DNA of 31,155 nucleotides from a virus (lineage: Duplodnaviria > Heunggongvirae > Uroviricota > Caudoviricetes), in IMG/VR virus record IMGVR_UViG_2548876865_000016, positions 1 to 31,155 of that record, one strand, 5' to 3'. The notes under the pieces were generated by a model, which saw only the letters and a program-made list of their open reading frames with translations, was not told where the DNA came from and searched no databases. This document shows positions 18,992 through 27,038 of the stretch, in pieces. Numbering within the stretch: position 1 is the first letter of the stretch; each line of letters opens with the position of its first letter. A program made the position numbers and the translations under genes.

Positions 18992-20803
18992 ATGGCTAAA
19001 TATTCCGATGAATTAAAAGAAGCGGCCCGCACGCTTTATATTAAAAGCTGGTCGCCGAAAGATATCGCGCAGGAACTGAATATTCCACCGCGTACAATTT
19101 ACCACTGGGCTGACGCCGGGAAGTGGGCATCACTGCTGCCTGTTGAATCGGTGGAAAATGTCATCACCCGCCGTATCGACCAGCTCTCCCGCCGCGAGAA
19201 AAAAACCGCACTGGAACTGGAGGAGCTGCGCGAACTGATTGCTCACCATGTGAAGCTCATGGCGCAGCGCAACAAGCACGCCGAAAAGCTGGCAGAAATT
19301 CAGGCCCAGAAAGCGGCTTATGATGGTGAAGGGTACTGCCTCAGCAGCGCAGGCGGGGAACCAGGGGAAAGAAAGCGCCGGTATAAGAAAAACGACGTTT
19401 CCGGCATTACACCTGAAATGCTCGACACCTGGGCGCGGGAGCATCTCTTCGAGTACCAGCTGCACTGCCGCGAACATAAAGGCGAAGACTGGCGCTTCAT
19501 TCTGAAAAGCCGACAGGTCGGCATGACCTATTATTTCGCCTGGGAGGCATTCGAAGATGCCGTCATTACCGGTGATAACCAGGTCTTTTTCTCTGCAAGC
19601 CGCGCCCAGTCAGAAATCTTCCGCGAATACATCGTCCAGATCGCCCAGAACCATTTCGGCGTTACACTGACGGGTAAAAATATCCGCCTCAGTAACGGCG
19701 CAATACTGCGCTTTTTATCCACGAACGCCAGCACCGCGCAGGGCTTTAACGGCCACCTGTATGGCGATGAGGTTTTCTGGATCCCGAAATTCACGCGCCT
19801 GCACGAAGTTGCCAGCGCAATGGCGACACATAACAAATACCGGACGACCTACTTTTCGACGCCCAGCGCGAAAACACACCAGGCTTACCCGGTCTGGACT
19901 GGCGAAGCCTGGCGCGGGGACGACCCGAAACGCAAAGGTGTGACGTTCCCGAAAGAAGACGAAATGCGCCAGGGCATTCTCTGCCCGGACCAGATCTGGC
20001 GCTACATCATCACGATGGAAGACGCTATCAAAGGCGGCCTCGGGGCGCTTGTCGATATTGAACGGCTGCGCAACAAATACAGCCCGACCGCGTTTGCCAT
20101 GCTCTACATGTGCCAGTTTGTTGACAGTAAGGACGCGGTGTTCAAGTTCTCCGCGCTTGTCGGCTGCGAAGTGGACCGGGCCACATGGGGCGACTTTGAT
20201 CTGACCGCTGCGCGGCCCTTTGGCAATCGCGAAGTATGGGCAGGTTTTGACCCGTCCCGCTCCGGCGACAACTCCACCTTTGTGTTAATCGCGCCCCCAA
20301 TCGAGGACGGCGAGCGCTTCCGCGTGCTGGCCGTCTGGCAATGGCAGGGCTTTAACTTTAGCTGGCAGGCTGACCAGATTAAGCAGCTTATGCGACGCTT
20401 TAACATTACCTACATCGGGATCGATACAACCGGCATTGGTAAAGGCGTTTATGACCTGGTCAGTAAGTTTGCACCGCGCGAAGCCACGCCCATTCTTTAC
20501 AGCGTCGAAAGTAAAAACCGCCTGGTCATGAAGATGATCGACGTCGTCGAACGCAAGCGCATCGAATGGGCAAAAGATGCCGTAGACGAAACGAACAAAG
20601 AGCGCGTCGAAATACCGGCCAGTTTTATGGCTATCCGGCGCACCACAACCAACAGCGGCAACGCGCTAACGTTTGTTGCCGAACGCTCGGACGCGACCGG
20701 CCACGCAGATGTTTTCTTCGCTATCTCGCACGCCGTAATTAACGAACCTATTGATCACGAATATGACCGCCCATCGGGCTGGCACTTTGGGAATGCAGCA
20801 TGA
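18992..20803 (+). CDS. P: Terminase large (ATPase) subunit, gpP-like
   Basis: 603 aa (P2 gpP ~590 aa); precedes the portal gene with an overlapping stop/start. Confidence 0.85.
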   Translation: MAKYSDELKEAARTLYIKSWSPKDIAQELNIPPRTIYHWADAGKWASLLPVESVENVITRRIDQLSRREKKTALELEELRELIAHHVKLMAQRNKHAEKLAEIQAQKAAYDGEGYCLSSAGGEPGERKRRYKKNDVSGITPEMLDTWAREHLFEYQLHCREHKGEDWRFILKSRQVGMTYYFAWEAFEDAVITGDNQVFFSASRAQSEIFREYIVQIAQNHFGVTLTGKNIRLSNGAILRFLSTNASTAQGFNGHLYGDEVFWIPKFTRLHEVASAMATHNKYRTTYFSTPSAKTHQAYPVWTGEAWRGDDPKRKGVTFPKEDEMRQGILCPDQIWRYIITMEDAIKGGLGALVDIERLRNKYSPTAFAMLYMCQFVDSKDAVFKFSALVGCEVDRATWGDFDLTAARPFGNREVWAGFDPSRSGDNSTFVLIAPPIEDGERFRVLAVWQWQGFNFSWQADQIKQLMRRFNITYIGIDTTGIGKGVYDLVSKFAPREATPILYSVESKNRLVMKMIDVVERKRIEWAKDAVDETNKERVEIPASFMAIRRTTTNSGNALTFVAERSDATGHADVFFAISHAVINEPIDHEYDRPSGWHFGNAA

Positions 20804-21861
20804 CAAAGAAACAGCGTAATAATAAAAAATTCAGGTCCATGACCGGCAACAAGGTTGAAACCTTCACGCCAGGGCGCGGAAGCGTGATCACCTTTGGCGA
20901 ACCAGAACCCATCCTGACGACCGGCACGGATTATCACAATATCTGGTATGACAATGAGTATGACCACTGGCGACTCCCGATTGATCGCCTGGCGCTGGCC
21001 CAGCTGCCGAACCTTAACGGCCAGCACGGCGGGGTACTGTATGCGCGGCGCAATATGGTGGCCGGTGGCTATATCGGCGGCGGCCTGACGCCTGACCAGG
21101 TCGAACAGGCCGTCTTTGATTACCTGCTGTTTGGTGACGTCGCTATCCTGAAAATTCGTAATATGTTCGGGGAGGTGATCGACCTGCTGCCGCTGCCGTC
21201 GCTGTATCTGCGCTGCCGGAAAGACGGCTCTTTTGCTGTACTGCAGGAAGGGCCGGCGCTTATCTATGACCCGGAAGACATCGTCTTTTTTAAAATGTAC
21301 GACCCGCGCCAGCAGGTTTACGGCCTGCCTGACTATATCGGCGGCATCCATTCGGTGTTACTCAACAGTGAGGCAACCATATTCCGGCGCCGTTACTACA
21401 ACAACGGGGCGCACATGGGCTTTATCCTCTATACCAGCGATCCCAATCTCACGCTGGAAATGGAAAACGAAATCAAAGACAAGATCGCCCAGTCCAAAGG
21501 GCTGGGTAACTTCCGCAATATGTTTATCAACATCCCGAAGGGCGACCCGGAAGGGGTTAAAATCATGCCAGTGGGCGAGGTCAGCGCAAAGGATGAATTT
21601 GCCAACATCAAAGGGATCACCGCACAGGACATCTTTACCGCCCACCGTTTCCCCGCTGGCCTGGCGGGTATCATCCCGACCAACGGCGCGGTAATGGGCA
21701 ACCCGGAAACCGCCCGCACAACCTATCGCAAGGATGAAGTTATCCCACTGCAGCGCAAGCTAATGAACGGCGTCAACAATGACCCGGAGATCCCCGCACA
21801 TTTGCACCTGGTTTTTGATGTAGATATCCCGGCAATTACCGCCGAAAAGGGCGAAAAATGA
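20800..21861 (+). CDS. Q: Portal protein (gpQ-like)
   Basis: 353 aa (P2 gpQ ~344 aa); downstream of terminase large subunit. Confidence 0.85.
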   Translation: MTKKQRNNKKFRSMTGNKVETFTPGRGSVITFGEPEPILTTGTDYHNIWYDNEYDHWRLPIDRLALAQLPNLNGQHGGVLYARRNMVAGGYIGGGLTPDQVEQAVFDYLLFGDVAILKIRNMFGEVIDLLPLPSLYLRCRKDGSFAVLQEGPALIYDPEDIVFFKMYDPRQQVYGLPDYIGGIHSVLLNSEATIFRRRYYNNGAHMGFILYTSDPNLTLEMENEIKDKIAQSKGLGNFRNMFINIPKGDPEGVKIMPVGEVSAKDEFANIKGITAQDIFTAHRFPAGLAGIIPTNGAVMGNPETARTTYRKDEVIPLQRKLMNGVNNDPEIPAHLHLVFDVDIPAITAEKGEK

Positions 21862-22184
21862 GCGCAGTTAAGTTAAAATCATCCCCATTGTTAGCAATGG
21901 CGTGCGGGATGGTGAACATGCGAGTTTTTAAAATTAAATGTCCTGAATGCGGCTCACCGGCCATCATTCGTAAATCTGACTGGAAAGACAAAAAACTGGC
22001 TGATTTATACTGCGCCTGCACGGAAGTTGAATGCGGCCACACCTTTGTTTTTAACGCTCAGTTTTCTCATACCCTCAGCCCCAGCGGGCTGACCGGAAAC
22101 AAGCTGGTTAAATTTCTGATTGACCGGCTCAAGCCGGAAGAACGTCAGTTCGCGCTGGACCTGCTCAACGGCCAGACGGCATAA
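21858..22184 (+). CDS. ogr: Ogr/Delta-family zinc-finger late transcription activator (alternative ATG starts at 21897, 21909, 21918)
   Basis: CPEC...(21 aa)...YCACTEVECGHTF matches the Ogr pattern CxxC...YxxCxxxxCxxTF; the first start overlaps the portal stop (ATGA). Confidence 0.6.
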   Translation: MSAVKLKSSPLLAMACGMVNMRVFKIKCPECGSPAIIRKSDWKDKKLADLYCACTEVECGHTFVFNAQFSHTLSPSGLTGNKLVKFLIDRLKPEERQFALDLLNGQTA

Positions 22185-22190
22185 AAACAA

Positions 22191-22237
22191 AAACCCGCAT
22201 CAGCTAAATTTTAGTTCTTAGCCAAAAGCGGGTTTTC
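22191..22237. terminator. Putative bidirectional intrinsic terminator between the convergent ogr-like and MazF-like genes
   Basis: Two-tier hairpin cccgc-atca-gctaa-[loop]-ttagc-caaaa-gcggg, flanked by an A-run on the 5' side and tttt on the 3' side. Confidence 0.45.
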
Positions 22238-22252
22238 AATCATGAGATATTT

Positions 22253-22672
22253 TTACGCAGCCTTGTTAACTTTTTGATGGGCTAACTTCAATGCTGGGAT
22301 GTAGGCAGGATGTAAAGCGCCCATAACTGGTGACGTTGGTGCTTCGCCACTTTTCATGGGCGCAAGATTGAACCAGTCACTGTTATAGGGGAGTTTTATG
22401 AGCGTACTCATATCAAATTTAGTGTCGTGCGCAAGTCCAGAGATAGCAAACCCAGCATCAACAGTTCTGATAACAAACTCAGTACCGTAAATTCTGTCAG
22501 TTTTCTGACTTGTTCCGTAGACAACCATTACTGCATTATCTTCTTCTGCTACCTTCACAACCAGTGAAGGGCGAGGTTTTGGGCCAGGTTCCCCTGGAAC
22601 CTGAGGAAAGTAACACCAAACGATATCGCCTGGCTCAGGGAGGGGGGTATAGTTTTTTGTATTGGTTGCCAT
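22253..22672 (-). CDS. PemK/MazF-fold protein (putative toxin / endoribonuclease)
   Basis: 139 aa; N-terminal PEPGDIVWCYFPQVPGEPGPKPRPSLVV resembles the MazF/Kid signature (GD-I/L-W-x-F...RP-x-VV); strong SD (AAGGAG) upstream; AT-richer than backbone. Confidence 0.55.
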   Translation of the reverse strand: MATNTKNYTPLPEPGDIVWCYFPQVPGEPGPKPRPSLVVKVAEEDNAVMVVYGTSQKTDRIYGTEFVIRTVDAGFAISGLAHDTKFDMSTLIKLPYNSDWFNLAPMKSGEAPTSPVMGALHPAYIPALKLAHQKVNKAA

Positions 22673-22681
22673 TTGTTCTCC

Positions 22682-22966
22682 TTACAAGAGACTTTTAGTA
22701 AATCGCTCCTCCGGTATATCGCTCGCGGTAGAAAGCTCACGAATAGTTTGGATTTGAGCTGTTGTCAGCGGCCCGTCATCTTTTTCGTAATGTGGCAGAA
22801 AAGCATCAGCCAGTTTACGTAATGCCAAATGGGCCAGTTCGGTTTTTGTCATCCCTGTCAGCGTCATCAGCGCATCCAGCGTATAGCCGCTGATAGCGTT
22901 CGGCGTATCCTTCTCTCTTAATCGAAGAACGAAATCGCCGGTTTTTTTAACGACGTGTACTGTCAT
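22682..22966 (-). CDS. Unknown protein upstream of the MazF-like gene (candidate antitoxin/partner)
   Basis: 94 aa; 9-nt gap to downstream gene; GGAG SD; no resemblance to MazE/PemI seen by eye. Confidence 0.4.
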   Translation of the reverse strand: MTVHVVKKTGDFVLRLREKDTPNAISGYTLDALMTLTGMTKTELAHLALRKLADAFLPHYEKDDGPLTTAQIQTIRELSTASDIPEERFTKSLL

Positions 22967-23106
22967 TTTTGATACTCCAGTTAGTTACTTGTGTAATAGA
23001 CCTCTCTTATTCTTAAAGTTGTCTTCGGAACACCGAATGAGCTGGGTTACGGTTGAACATTATTCACTCCTAGGTTAGGGATGCCTGATAGTAGGCACAT
23101 AAGAAA

Positions 23107-23156
23107 GATATCAGATTGATATCACAAAAGCAAGGCAAAGATATCATATTGATATC
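23107..23156. promoter_or_regulatory. Twin 17-bp palindromes (GATATCA-N3-TGATATC), candidate operator pair
   Basis: gatatcagattgatatc at 23107-23123 and gatatcatattgatatc at 23140-23156, 33 bp apart, in the intergenic region between the stop of gene A and the start of the 94-aa gene. Confidence 0.5.
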
Positions 23157-23243
23157 TTCATGACTGAGCGGGCTCTTTGCCGCCCGCACCCGCAGAATCA
23201 CGCTAACCGACGCAACCAGTTGCGACGGCCAGCGCGATTTCAT

Positions 23244-25859
23244 TCATTCTTTTGGGTGGCGACCTTCCACATCCGCCAGCATTTTTTGATACTCCCCGAT
23301 CGGATCAAACCGCAGACGCGTGGCATCAATGCCGTGGTTATCCCGCAGGCGTTCCCATAATTTATTTACCGTCTGTGACTCATCGGGTAATTGACGTGTT
23401 ATCAACTGACCGCCAGCGCTGGCCTGATAAATTTTGCCGTCTATCTCCAGACGGCTCCCCATTAACAACGAAACGGCCTGAATCTCTGAAATCTCAACTG
23501 AATACAACGCCGCATCAGCCAACAGGCTGGCAACCGCAGGGGTAAGCGATGCCCGTCTGGCTTTTTCAGCCGTCGATCTGACCTCGGTTTTTTCGACAGC
23601 AGAACGCCAGGCGACATCTAATTCGCTTCCTGGCTCATAAGGTGATCCGCTTTGCTGCCTTTTGAATGGTGTTTCACGTAGTCGCCGCATCAATTTGCGC
23701 CGCGTTGTCTGGTCCATGTTTTCAAAATCGACGATTTCCTCTTCTGATTCTTCTGTCATACCCTCCACATCAGGCAAAAAATCGGTGATTTTTTCGTCTT
23801 CCGTAGAGTTATTGACAGAACTCCAAGCGTCGCCGGTTGGCGACGGCAAAAGGTCAACCCCCAAACCAGGGCCGTTTTTGGCCCCGGTGGCGGCTTTGGA
23901 TTTGGCGCGGATTTTCCACTTAACCAGACGGGTGCAAATACGGGAGGCATCACCCAGACGCGGCGACCAGACCCCGAATACCTTTTCGGGGATCTCACAA
24001 TAGGCGTTCATTTCATCAGCTGGCTGATAGGCCAGACGGACGACATAGTTTTCTCGCGGGATCAAAACACCGCCCTGGCGGATGATGTAGGTAGCAAAGC
24101 ACCCGACATCGGCAGCGGCGCAAACCGCATCCATTGCAGGATCCACAAGCAGCGGCGCACCGCGTTTGAAGGTATTGTCAATTTTCTGGCGGGTCGTGAT
24201 CTGATTGCTCAGTTTGCGCAGCTCGCGGTAAACCGATATGGGCGGCTGTCCGATAGGCTGAAACTGGCGGATACGGTGAAGCGACGCCCAGGCCATTGCA
24301 TATTTGGCGGTTTCATTCAGCGGTTTGCCGCTTTCGTCGTCCAGTTCACCGGCCAGCGCGTGGCCGTCGATATTCTTCGAAATGTATTTAGCGATGTATG
24401 CCGTTGCTGACCCTTTCCGTGGGTCCATTTTTTTTGACTTGAAACGAGCACCGGTATTACGGCCCAGCTCGTCGCGGTCTTCCGCAATGAAGTAGGCGCG
24501 AAGGATCGCAATCGTGGCTTTGACTTGCTCTTGTGGCATAAATAGCAACGCGTGCCAGTGTGGTGTCCCATCGTGATGCGGCTCGGCGACGCGGAAGCCA
24601 TAAGGGCGCAAATCTTCGCGTTTCAGTTTGGCGGTTGCCCGGTTCCATACTCGGCATAAATAGCGCTGCGCCTGGGCGACGGTGGAATGATTCCATTTGG
24701 CGTTATGGTGGCCGGACGCAATATTACTGTGATATTTCGACGGGCAAGTGATGGTCAGGAAGATGCCAACATCGCCGCGACTTTGGGCGACAAGCTCAAC
24801 CCCAGCCATTCGGGCCATAAGCTCATGGCGACGAATAGCCGGGTTAGACGTGGATTTATTAATCATTTCCTCAAGCGACGAAACGTTGCCGTCTTCGTCT
24901 ACCAGTTCATGACTTTTGAAAAAATCCCGGTGTTTACGGCGCTGTTCCTGCCACTCGATCAGGCTGGAAACGCTAACGTAGGCGTGCGCTTTTTTATTTA
25001 CCGCGCCAACAGCACGCAGCTGGTTCTCGCGCCAGTCACAACGCAAGCGCCAGATTTTACGCCCCCACCAGTCAGGCGAAGCCATACGCAAAATGGCCGT
25101 GCATATGCGCTCGCGTTCCCACGGCGCATACCATGCAGGCGGTACAATGCGAAGCGCCAGCATTTCGCGGCCCTGGTGGCAATAAAGCCAGTCCAATTCT
25201 TCGACGTTCATGTCTGAAACATTCCGTCCCAGGGCTTCGCATTCCGTCCCCAGCATTTCAGCCATGCGGCTGGCGATCTCATTAGCGGCGCTCAGTGCTT
25301 CCCGCTTTGTGAAATCAGCCAGACGTTGCCAGCGCCCGAACCAGTACGCAGCCAGTTCGCCGGTGATATCAGGCGAAACACCTTGCCTTGTGCGTACAAC
25401 ATCAAGACGCAGCAATGATTTTTTCACGGTCCCCATAAGAAAATCATTGGTGTGTCTGGTTTCACGGTTGACCCGTAACCACTCAATTTTTTTACGCCAG
25501 ACTTCACGAATGAAGAACGGTTCTGATAATAAACGCGCTTCGACACCTTCGGGCGTATTGACCCAGGCTGCCGTCGTAGCTTTAGCGGCTTCCATTTCCT
25601 GCCGGATTATATTTTGATGGGCGGCCAGTAGCAGGCCGTACGGTTCGTACCTGTCCAGCGCCTGGATAAGCGCGTTACGGTCCCGAACCTCGTCGGGGTT
25701 GTAACCGGCGCGTTTGAAGATGTGATCGATGTGTTTTTTTACGGCTGGATGATGTACCACCGCCCCTGCAAGCGGGGCGATTTTTTTCGGTTCGTAGGTG
25801 TACAGGCCAATAGCTGGGCGCGGCGCGTTCCAGGGCCATGCAAAAGCGGTGTCAGACAT
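23244..25859 (-). CDS. A: Rolling-circle replication initiator (P2 gpA-like HUH endonuclease); start taken at ATG 25859 (ORF track GTG at 25877)
   Basis: ~871 aa; HUH-type motif (TPHWHALLF) and paired Tyr (ATAYIAKYISK); ATG at 25857-25859 lies 2 nt after the upstream small-ORF stop. Confidence 0.8.
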   Translation of the reverse strand: MSDTAFAWPWNAPRPAIGLYTYEPKKIAPLAGAVVHHPAVKKHIDHIFKRAGYNPDEVRDRNALIQALDRYEPYGLLLAAHQNIIRQEMEAAKATTAAWVNTPEGVEARLLSEPFFIREVWRKKIEWLRVNRETRHTNDFLMGTVKKSLLRLDVVRTRQGVSPDITGELAAYWFGRWQRLADFTKREALSAANEIASRMAEMLGTECEALGRNVSDMNVEELDWLYCHQGREMLALRIVPPAWYAPWERERICTAILRMASPDWWGRKIWRLRCDWRENQLRAVGAVNKKAHAYVSVSSLIEWQEQRRKHRDFFKSHELVDEDGNVSSLEEMINKSTSNPAIRRHELMARMAGVELVAQSRGDVGIFLTITCPSKYHSNIASGHHNAKWNHSTVAQAQRYLCRVWNRATAKLKREDLRPYGFRVAEPHHDGTPHWHALLFMPQEQVKATIAILRAYFIAEDRDELGRNTGARFKSKKMDPRKGSATAYIAKYISKNIDGHALAGELDDESGKPLNETAKYAMAWASLHRIRQFQPIGQPPISVYRELRKLSNQITTRQKIDNTFKRGAPLLVDPAMDAVCAAADVGCFATYIIRQGGVLIPRENYVVRLAYQPADEMNAYCEIPEKVFGVWSPRLGDASRICTRLVKWKIRAKSKAATGAKNGPGLGVDLLPSPTGDAWSSVNNSTEDEKITDFLPDVEGMTEESEEEIVDFENMDQTTRRKLMRRLRETPFKRQQSGSPYEPGSELDVAWRSAVEKTEVRSTAEKARRASLTPAVASLLADAALYSVEISEIQAVSLLMGSRLEIDGKIYQASAGGQLITRQLPDESQTVNKLWERLRDNHGIDATRLRFDPIGEYQKMLADVEGRHPKE

Positions 25860-26073
25860 TGGATGCCCCGCTATCACCCTCCCGCAGGGAATGCTTTTCG
25901 ATTAGCGGGTCGAGTAACACATTGAAAGAAATCAACAGCGTGTTTGCGGCTTCACTTCCGGCGAGAACACCCGCCAACGTTGCGTGTGCAAGGGCCAGTG
26001 TTTTGGCTTCGTTAAGCGCAGCCAGTGCGCCGCGCTGGTATTCCGAAAGACCGTTATTAATTTTGCTAGCCAT
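25852..26073 (-). CDS. Small hypothetical protein (73 aa), translationally coupled to dam
   Basis: ATG overlaps the dam stop (ATGA); its stop abuts the proposed start of gene A. Confidence 0.35.
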   Translation of the reverse strand: MASKINNGLSEYQRGALAALNEAKTLALAHATLAGVLAGSEAANTLLISFNVLLDPLIEKHSLREGDSGASNV

Positions 26074-27038
26074 CAGAAGAGCACCTCGTCAGCCGTTCCA
26101 CCCCACACGGAATAACCAGCACAAGGGCCGCAGTCAGGGCAGCACCCACCACCGGCACGGCGACAAGTCGCGCAGACTTTGAGGACGCCGATCACTTCAC
26201 TGGCGGCCCCTCTGGTAATGGCGTTCGCGCTAACAGAACGGTTAACGCTGATTTCCTGGAAGTTGAAACAGCGATAAATCTCGCGGGTGACTGGGGTGTC
26301 GCTATTGGACAGGATCACCGGCGAACCAGTAAGGCGGTTAATATCCAGCAGGGCGGCAGCTAACTGGCGATGTTCTTTAATGCCAAACGGGGCTGTGTGA
26401 TATTGGGTGAAATTAGCTGTTTCGCTTGTTGGCAGGTATGGCGGATCGCAGTAGATAACCGCGTCACTACCAATCATGATTTTTAACGTGCTCTGGAAAT
26501 CGCAGCACACGAAAATGGCTTTCGTGTCGTTAGCTTTTTCAGAGAATAAACGGATCTGTTCTTCCGGGAAGTAAGGCGGGGTTTTGTGACGCCCAAAGGG
26601 AACGTTATATCCACCCTGTTGGTTGTAGCGTACTACGCCGTTATATCCGTGACGGTTCAGGTAAAGAAATTGTGCTGCACGAAGAATCTTGCCCGCGTCC
26701 GGCCCATCTTCAAACACACTGCGCAATGACAGTAGGTCACGTGCGCGGGCGTTGAAATCATCGCGGATCCACTTATAGCCGTCTTTATCGCCGTACACTT
26801 TAAACAGTGGGCGAGCAGCGTCGATCACCGCATCAGGCCAGCGGGTTATCTGGCGATACAGGTTAATTAAATCTGGGTTGATATCACCCAGGATATAACG
26901 GCGATATTCAGTATTGAGGAAAACAGAAGCACCGCCGACAAACGGTTCCACCAGGCAATCGGCTTTCGGCAGAATCGGCAGCAAATCAGGCATAACGCGG
27001 CCTTTACCACCGGGCCATTTAACGAGAGATCGAATCAT
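26073..27038 (-). CDS. dam: DNA N6-adenine methyltransferase (Dam-like), with a Cys-rich C-terminal extension
   Basis: 321 aa; SAM-binding motif EPFVGGASVF and catalytic DPPY; C-terminal ~40 aa CATCRRAGGGCCPDCGPC. Confidence 0.85.
   Translation of the reverse strand: MIRSLVKWPGGKGRVMPDLLPILPKADCLVEPFVGGASVFLNTEYRRYILGDINPDLINLYRQITRWPDAVIDAARPLFKVYGDKDGYKWIRDDFNARARDLLSLRSVFEDGPDAGKILRAAQFLYLNRHGYNGVVRYNQQGGYNVPFGRHKTPPYFPEEQIRLFSEKANDTKAIFVCCDFQSTLKIMIGSDAVIYCDPPYLPTSETANFTQYHTAPFGIKEHRQLAAALLDINRLTGSPVILSNSDTPVTREIYRCFNFQEISVNRSVSANAITRGAASEVIGVLKVCATCRRAGGGCCPDCGPCAGYSVWGGTADEVLF

Follow-up and report, generated by a model that had tools for sequence, protein, structure and literature searches.

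Self-repression by the antitoxin, with the toxin acting as co-repressor, is the standard scheme of type II toxin-antitoxin (TA) operons. Ribbon-helix-helix dimers, such as those of Arc and Mnt of phage P22 and CcdA of the F plasmid (6-bp GTATAC), occupy short self-symmetric subsites, with the dimers about one helical turn apart. In Mycobacterium tuberculosis, the ~18-bp operator of the ribbon-helix-helix antitoxin MazE6 contains the -10 (TANNNT) of its own promoter (PMC9477884). The MazF-family TA operons Kis-Kid (parD, plasmid R1) and MoxXT each have two promoter palindromes, through which they are autoregulated according to the toxin:antitoxin ratio (as summarised in PMC3879964). The gpA-gpQ interval of P2 is a published cargo and defence hotspot, where the cargo is diverse, exchangeable, and provided with its own promoters (PMC9122126, PMC13586616).

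The window, i.e. the whole stretch of 31,155 nucleotides that was analyzed, is a P2-like prophage, and among sequenced phages it is closest to SI7, SW3, and SW5 of Salmonella (Irrigatiovirus). It carries two 17-bp palindromes at 23107-23156. At a probability of roughly 0.78, we consider them to be operators on the promoter of a self-contained, mobile type II TA cassette in the gpA-gpQ hotspot of a P2-like (Irrigatiovirus-like) phage. The features of the region are as follows.

18992-20803, plus strand: terminase gene
20800-21861, plus strand: portal gene
21858-22184, plus strand: Ogr/Delta-like zinc-finger gene directly after portal (Pfam, 62.9 bits)
22186-23167: extent of the cargo cassette in the gpA-gpQ hotspot, with both flanks common to relatives that carry other cargo
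22253-22672, minus strand: gene of a 139-aa PemK/MazF-like toxin, starting 9 nt past the antitoxin stop
22682-22966, minus strand: gene of a 94-aa protein, the predicted antitoxin and repressor
22967-23098, minus strand: putative 5' leader of ~131 nt
23060-23013, minus strand: leader ORF of 15 codons with a Shine-Dalgarno sequence, MFNRNPAHSVFRRQL
23105-23113, minus strand: predicted extended -10 TGaTATCTT (TG at 23113-23112, TATCTT at 23110-23105)
23107-23123: proximal palindrome GATATCAGATTGATATC, read on the minus strand as GATATCAATCTGATATC
23128-23133, minus strand: predicted -35 TTGCTT (3/6 matches), between the palindromes
23140-23156: distal palindrome GATATCATATTGATATC, read on the minus strand as GATATCAATATGATATC
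23168-23243, minus strand: backbone element outside the operators, between the cassette and gene A
23244-25877, minus strand: gene A

Compared with the described systems, the GATATC hexamers of the window, set at 11 bp, matched the subsite pattern of Arc/Mnt and CcdA; the sequences are unrelated and the stoichiometry proposed below for the window follows from this spacing. Like the MazE6 operator, the proximal 17-bp palindrome supplies a -10 (TATCTT). MazE6 has one operator, whereas the window cassette has two that flank the -35, the two systems are unrelated in sequence, and binding in the window is predicted. Kis is an AbrB-type antitoxin, and the palindromes of Kis-Kid and MoxXT differ in length and affinity, whereas the window pair is near-identical (PMC3879964). 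The cassette occupies the same slot as the old/tin hotspot of P2 (PMC9122126, PMC13586616); unlike P2, the window backbone carries an additional Ogr/Delta-like gene after portal. The cassette itself is not mentioned in PMC9122126 or PMC13586616, neither MazF nor PemK appearing in their text. Set against these systems, the palindromes are most likely an ordinary autoregulatory operator pair, the antitoxin family of which is not yet annotated.

The limits of the cargo segment were drawn from the relatives. Homology to SI7 and to an E. coli prophage ran through the portal and ogr-like genes to 22185 and resumed exactly at 23168 (GCGGGCTCTTTGCCGCCCGC...) into gene A. In SI7, the slot in between held a DNA methylase and a small ORF; in the E. 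coli prophage, its occupant was a 925-aa protein. A scan of viral contigs (IMG/VR) for the 20-nt junction motif recovered 13 more relatives, among which the cargo was of at least five kinds. The GATATC palindrome was found in none of these 13, nor in SI7 or the E. coli prophage. Since the backbone homology restarts at 23168 and the palindromes are absent from the relatives, the palindromes belong to the cargo segment 22186-23167. Some side observations were made in the same interval. The Ogr/Delta-like gene of annotated relatives begins ~47 nt past the portal stop, and its true start in the window is probably an internal ATG near 21918. A bidirectional terminator-like element (AAAACCCGC...GCGGGTTTT, 29-nt loop) lies at 22190-22236 between the convergent ogr-like and toxin genes. 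The gaps from portal to ogr and from ogr to toxin are shorter than 75 bp, and a P2-type cohesive-end sequence is missing from the window. A 57-aa ORF across the palindromes (23070-23243) was judged spurious; it straddles the boundary between backbone and cargo, and Pfam returned no match for it.

Between the cassette and gene A, the stretch 23168-23243 folded into hairpins with a free energy of -46.5 kcal/mol (z -4.4). The hairpin GCGGGC-N8-GCCCGC (23168-23187) was invariant and marked the exact edge of the hotspot in the 13 relatives with their five or more cargos. In SI7-like relatives, it is followed by a T-run and is terminator-like; the window has no T-run there. The long hairpin at 23196-23239 (minus-strand sense, 21-nt arms) lies just 3' of the gene A stop. 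Compensatory changes were seen in 10 of its 19 pairs (9 distinct relatives). Its G-U pairs are possible only in the sense strand of gene A, which suggests that selection acts on an RNA fold where the early gene A transcript ends. Both hairpins were absent from a Pectobacterium prophage of the same gene order. The hairpins probably end the gene A transcript; they make read-through from gene A less likely, which agrees with a promoter of the cassette's own. The GC-rich sequence 23168-23243 was also considered as a cos-like element and was rejected, as it is this hairpin pair, kept in relatives and sometimes joined by a T-run. Likewise, a structured RNA of known family was rejected, since no Rfam family reached its gathering score in 22150-23300, where the matches were at chance level only (bantam, 20.5 bits versus 61; GlmZ, 15.2 bits versus 60).

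The earlier note had described the palindromes as near-perfect, 33 bp apart, and framed by identical flanks, and had placed them 140-190 bp upstream of the 94-aa/MazF-like operon, just past the gene A stop. All of this was borne out. Each 17-bp palindrome has 7-bp arms (GATATCA/TGATATC) around a 3-bp spacer, within a window segment 23104-23159 that reads AAAGATATCAGATTGATATCACAAAAGCAAGGCAAAGATATCATATTGATATCTTC. A repeat finder called a 20-nt direct repeat, AAAGATATCA[G/T]ATTGATATC, with 95% identity and 33 bp from start to start, and it called the matching inverted repeat as well. The pattern GATATCANATTGATATC, allowing up to three mismatches, was confined to 23107-23156 within the 31,155-bp window; 0.12 matches were expected in shuffled sequence, and the observed count was reached in none of 100 shuffles. 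Relative to the 94-aa ORF, whose ATG is at 22966 on the minus strand, the palindromes are 141-190 bp upstream; the gene A stop (23244-23246) precedes them by 88 bp. No conserved element of the cassette lies farther out than the distal palindrome, which is 11 bp short of the backbone junction (23167/23168).

Each 17-mer can also be read as two self-symmetric GATATC hexamers 11 bp, or one helical turn, apart. With starts at 23107, 23118, 23140, and 23151, the hexamers are spaced by 11, 22, and 11 bp, and 4 of the 11 GATATC hexamers of the window fall inside this 50-bp stretch. When the operator regions of eight loci were aligned, the invariant columns lay almost all within the palindromes and the flanks were unrelated. 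Such concentration of conservation on the palindrome columns indicates that the palindromes are under selection and are no chance match. Across loci the hexamer spacing inside a palindrome was constant at 11 bp, and the spacing from palindrome to palindrome ranged from 32 to 35 bp, a variation that argues against a rigid complex spanning both sites. Querying a phage collection with the palindrome region returned only 21-nt chance matches. Two lone, half-site-like TGATATCA octamers were noticed in coding regions (25364-25371 and 26879-26886); the chance expectation for 31 kb is about 0.5, and both are probably fortuitous.

Genomes, metagenomes, and viral contigs were then searched for homologues of the 94-aa protein. 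Each homologue recovered had a gene for a 132-142-aa PemK-like protein at most 9 nt downstream. Upstream of the 94-aa gene, the twin palindromes were present in every enterobacterial homologue, in at least seven different contexts. The loci are given below with the identity of their product to the 94-aa protein.

L009, L012, and L013, an IMG/VR viral contig and metagenome contigs: 94%, adjoining P2-like tail genes
L010, metagenome scaffold: 94%, after gpD-ogr
L011, Cronobacter-like genome assembly: 94%, following an Ogr_Delta gene and a fragment that resembles portal
L014, Edwardsiella: 88%, adjoining an integrase
L021 and L022, Pantoea: 88%, among ordinary metabolic genes with no phage genes nearby
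L015-L017, Serratia: 84%, after gpD, with ogr in between in L015 and L017
L019 and L020, Pectobacterium: 82%, in the gpA/ogr/portal slot as in the window
L005, Rouxiella: 78%
L018, L023, and L007, Pseudomonas; L006, Giesbergeria; L008, Accumulibacter: loci with a single palindrome

The last group comprises distant homologues (39-61% identity), in which the single palindrome is built on a (G/T)ATAT core. Sought in related prophages, the motif therefore tracked the 94-aa cassette and not the backbone, no copy accompanying the other cargos of the 13 backbone relatives. Judged from these sequence contexts, the cassette is mobile, passing among the hotspots of P2-like prophages and the chromosomes of Enterobacterales. 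In other P2-like prophages it was seen right after the canonical ogr, and it lay repeatedly beside Ogr_Delta genes.

Promoter scans placed the palindromes on a promoter. The scans returned TTGACA-N18-TATCTT in L010 and in the Edwardsiella locus L014, and TTGACT-N17-TATCTT in the Rouxiella locus L005 and the Serratia locus L015. All four hits had TG one base before the -10 and hence an extended -10. At these four loci the -35 lay between the palindromes and the extended -10 TGaTATC was the end of the proximal palindrome, such that a palindromic operator overlapped the predicted operon promoter. By alignment, the -35 position read TTGACA, TTGACT, or TTGACG in the orthologues. The promoter of the window was called from the orthologue scans (L010, L005, L014, and L015), and its predicted -35 and -10 are separated by a spacer of 17 nt. 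A scan of the window itself over 22200-23400 gave no site above threshold; as the -35 TTGCTT falls below that threshold, the promoter may be weaker in the window.

From the position of this promoter, transcription would start near 23098 on the minus strand. A distance of 141-190 bp from operator to ATG is unusually far and counts against the operator reading; the ~131-nt leader that follows from a start near 23098 would explain it. In the Rouxiella locus, the proximal palindrome is only 56 nt from the ATG. A small ORF with a Shine-Dalgarno sequence occupied the equivalent position of the leader in 6 of 7 orthologous loci (L019, L010, L011, L014, L015, and L021) and was absent in Rouxiella. It begins at -90 to -98 from the antitoxin ATG and extends to between -46 and -53, continuing to -15 in L014, and is 12-15 codons long in most loci and 26 in L014 (for example, MAHLINLNLIIFLGR in L011 and MRNLVNINAFFLLRI in L019). 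It may encode a leader peptide or serve to control translation. Other properties of the leader were observed as well. A AAGAGAGGT block lies ~35-45 nt upstream of the antitoxin ATG (window ~23010-23002, minus strand), and no start codon follows it in the window; the block was found at the equivalent position in 6 of 7 other loci, reading AAGTAGGT in L014, and was absent in Rouxiella L005. The leader of the Pectobacterium loci (L019 3779-3891 and the matching region of L020) contains tandem arrays of (TTAAAC)n and (AACTTCAAATT)n. Since their copy number differs between L019 and L020, the leader is hypervariable in length, at 250 versus 271 nt.

These leaders raise the question of whether the cassette is more than a two-gene TA system, with translational or phase-variable leader control on top of operator repression, acting as an abortive-infection or anti-phage module in a defence hotspot. 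We regard this as doubtful. If it were true, an unannotated ribbon-helix-helix family, which forms 278 clusters at 50% identity and lacks a Pfam model, would be paired with a leader that bears an upstream ORF, and the upstream ORF of 12-26 codons together with the strain-variable Pectobacterium repeats would constitute a layer of control.

The two genes of the cassette have the order of a type II TA operon, being co-oriented, with the small antitoxin gene first, the toxin gene second, and a gap of 9 nt that is constant in the orthologous loci. The 139-aa protein belongs to a recognised toxin family, Pfam PemK_toxin (PF02452; 28.7 bits versus a gathering cut-off of 23.1), and was also assigned to the PHROG of MazF-like growth inhibitors; its similarity to solved MazF proteins in the PDB was weak (E 0.28). 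It would be expected to be toxic and to be neutralised by the 94-aa protein. The 94-aa protein matched no Pfam, NCBIfam, or PHROG family, and PADLOC returned nothing meaningful. Its family consists of 23 close homologues and 278 representatives at 50% identity, with the consensus ..LLLRxR..D...GV...T...LA..LG..ET.VIH.AL..LA...LP.YE.DDGPLT. A few members gave faint Pfam matches to PSK_trans_fac, RHH_1, and helix-turn-helix families. PDB profile searches with the family (A1 and A2) yielded spurious Bcl-2 matches only.

An AF2 model built from a shallow alignment (the 23 close homologues) was unusable, with a pLDDT of 52.6. With an 83-sequence alignment, the pLDDT was 81.8, and residues 11-55 were near or above 90. 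This model has an extended segment at 11-26, helices at 27-37 and 41-56, and a C-terminal helix at 69-78; a Foldseek search with it against the PDB gave nothing significant. Judged by the predicted fold and the faint Pfam matches, the 94-aa protein is likely a ribbon-helix-helix DNA-binding antitoxin. Within its motif F12-V-L-R15-L-R17, R15 and R17 were invariant among the close homologues, and the alternating pattern would fit a DNA-reading beta-ribbon. The 94-aa protein had no detectable sequence similarity to the antitoxin of the Bacillus subtilis pair MazE (EndoAI)-MazF (EndoA) (PDB 4ME7). In a structural alignment of 4ME7 with the model, the identity was 17%, and in the 94-aa protein the stretch from the predicted strand to helix A was longer by ~10 residues. 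Compared with B. subtilis MazF, the window toxin is longer (139 aa), and its resemblance to the solved MazF proteins is, as noted, slight.

Based on this geometry, we propose how the cassette would regulate itself. The -35 comes just after the distal palindrome; the proximal palindrome overlies the spacer and contributes the extended -10 TGaTATCTT. At each hexamer, an antitoxin dimer would place its two-stranded beta-ribbon (conserved F-x-L-R-L-R, residues 12-17) in the major groove. Because each palindrome consists of two self-symmetric GATATC hexamers at a fixed 11 bp, two dimers per palindrome appear more likely for a ribbon-helix-helix protein than one, which would place four on the promoter. 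Toxin dimers bound to the C-terminal tails of the antitoxin may strengthen the complex as co-repressors. Occupied operators would block RNA polymerase, so that the operon represses itself, and degradation of the antitoxin would de-repress it.

That the palindromes autoregulate the 94-aa/MazF-like operon was one of two functions considered in the earlier note, and our results favoured it: the palindromes travel with the operon into unrelated contexts, they bracket and overlap a conserved sigma-70 promoter, and the 94-aa protein models as a ribbon-helix-helix antitoxin. The other function, a cos/packaging site recognised by terminase, draws on the position of the palindromes in the gpA-gpQ interval, which is the site of P2 cos (PMC9122126). 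However, the palindromes were missing from all relatives with the same terminase, portal, and gene A backbone, the 13 relatives above among them, and they came with the cassette where it sat elsewhere in prophages and at a Pantoea locus outside phage sequence. Moreover, they are AT-rich, in contrast to the GC-rich P2 cos, and the 19-nt P2 cos sequence GGCGAGGCGGGGAAAGCAC had no match in the window at up to three mismatches. A packaging role is contradicted by these results, and we give it next to no credence. A phage regulator (C, Cox, or an Ogr/Delta-like protein) could instead bind the palindromes and tie the cargo to the phage life cycle, and the cassette does often sit beside an Ogr_Delta gene (the window, L010, L015, and L019). 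Yet the motif was kept in the Pantoea loci L021 and L022 and in Edwardsiella L014, where phage genes are not nearby. Operators of the P2 C/Cox type are repeats at the Pe/Pc switch, whereas here the motif occurred at 23107-23156 only, and the rest of the prophage, the C-cox region included, has no second copy. The sites of Ogr-type activators, TGT-N12-ACA upstream of the -35, do not fit the palindrome motif. Control by a phage regulator is thus highly improbable.

A transcription factor of the host, rather than the antitoxin, might bind the palindromes. In favour of this, the core is conserved over several enterobacterial genera, which would share a global regulator. Against this, the motif goes with the cassette into Pseudomonas and Betaproteobacteria, its changes parallel the divergence of the 94-aa protein, it is found at the cassette only within the window, and the model of the protein encoded first in the cassette shows a DNA-binding fold typical of autoregulators of TA operons. 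We therefore hold a host factor to be unlikely. Finally, the palindromes could be recombination or insertion determinants that mobilise the cassette, their regulatory role being incidental. In line with this, they are the outermost conserved elements, 11 bp from the junction, and nothing upstream of them is conserved between contexts. But the cassette has no recombinase and no matching repeat at its other end, the fixed geometry relative to the -35 and -10 accounts for where the palindromes lie, and the hotspot junction is set by the backbone hairpin, whichever cargo is present. This explanation is very unlikely.

As probable autoregulatory operators, the palindromes leave the understanding of TA regulation unchanged. 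The result gives a conspicuous non-coding motif a likely function and removes one candidate cos location for this phage group. The boundaries of a compact mobile cassette, made up of operators, promoter, leader, antitoxin, and toxin, are set as well. Moreover, GATATC hexamers 11 bp apart offer a testable DNA target for an unannotated antitoxin family, which aids its annotation and the building of a family model.
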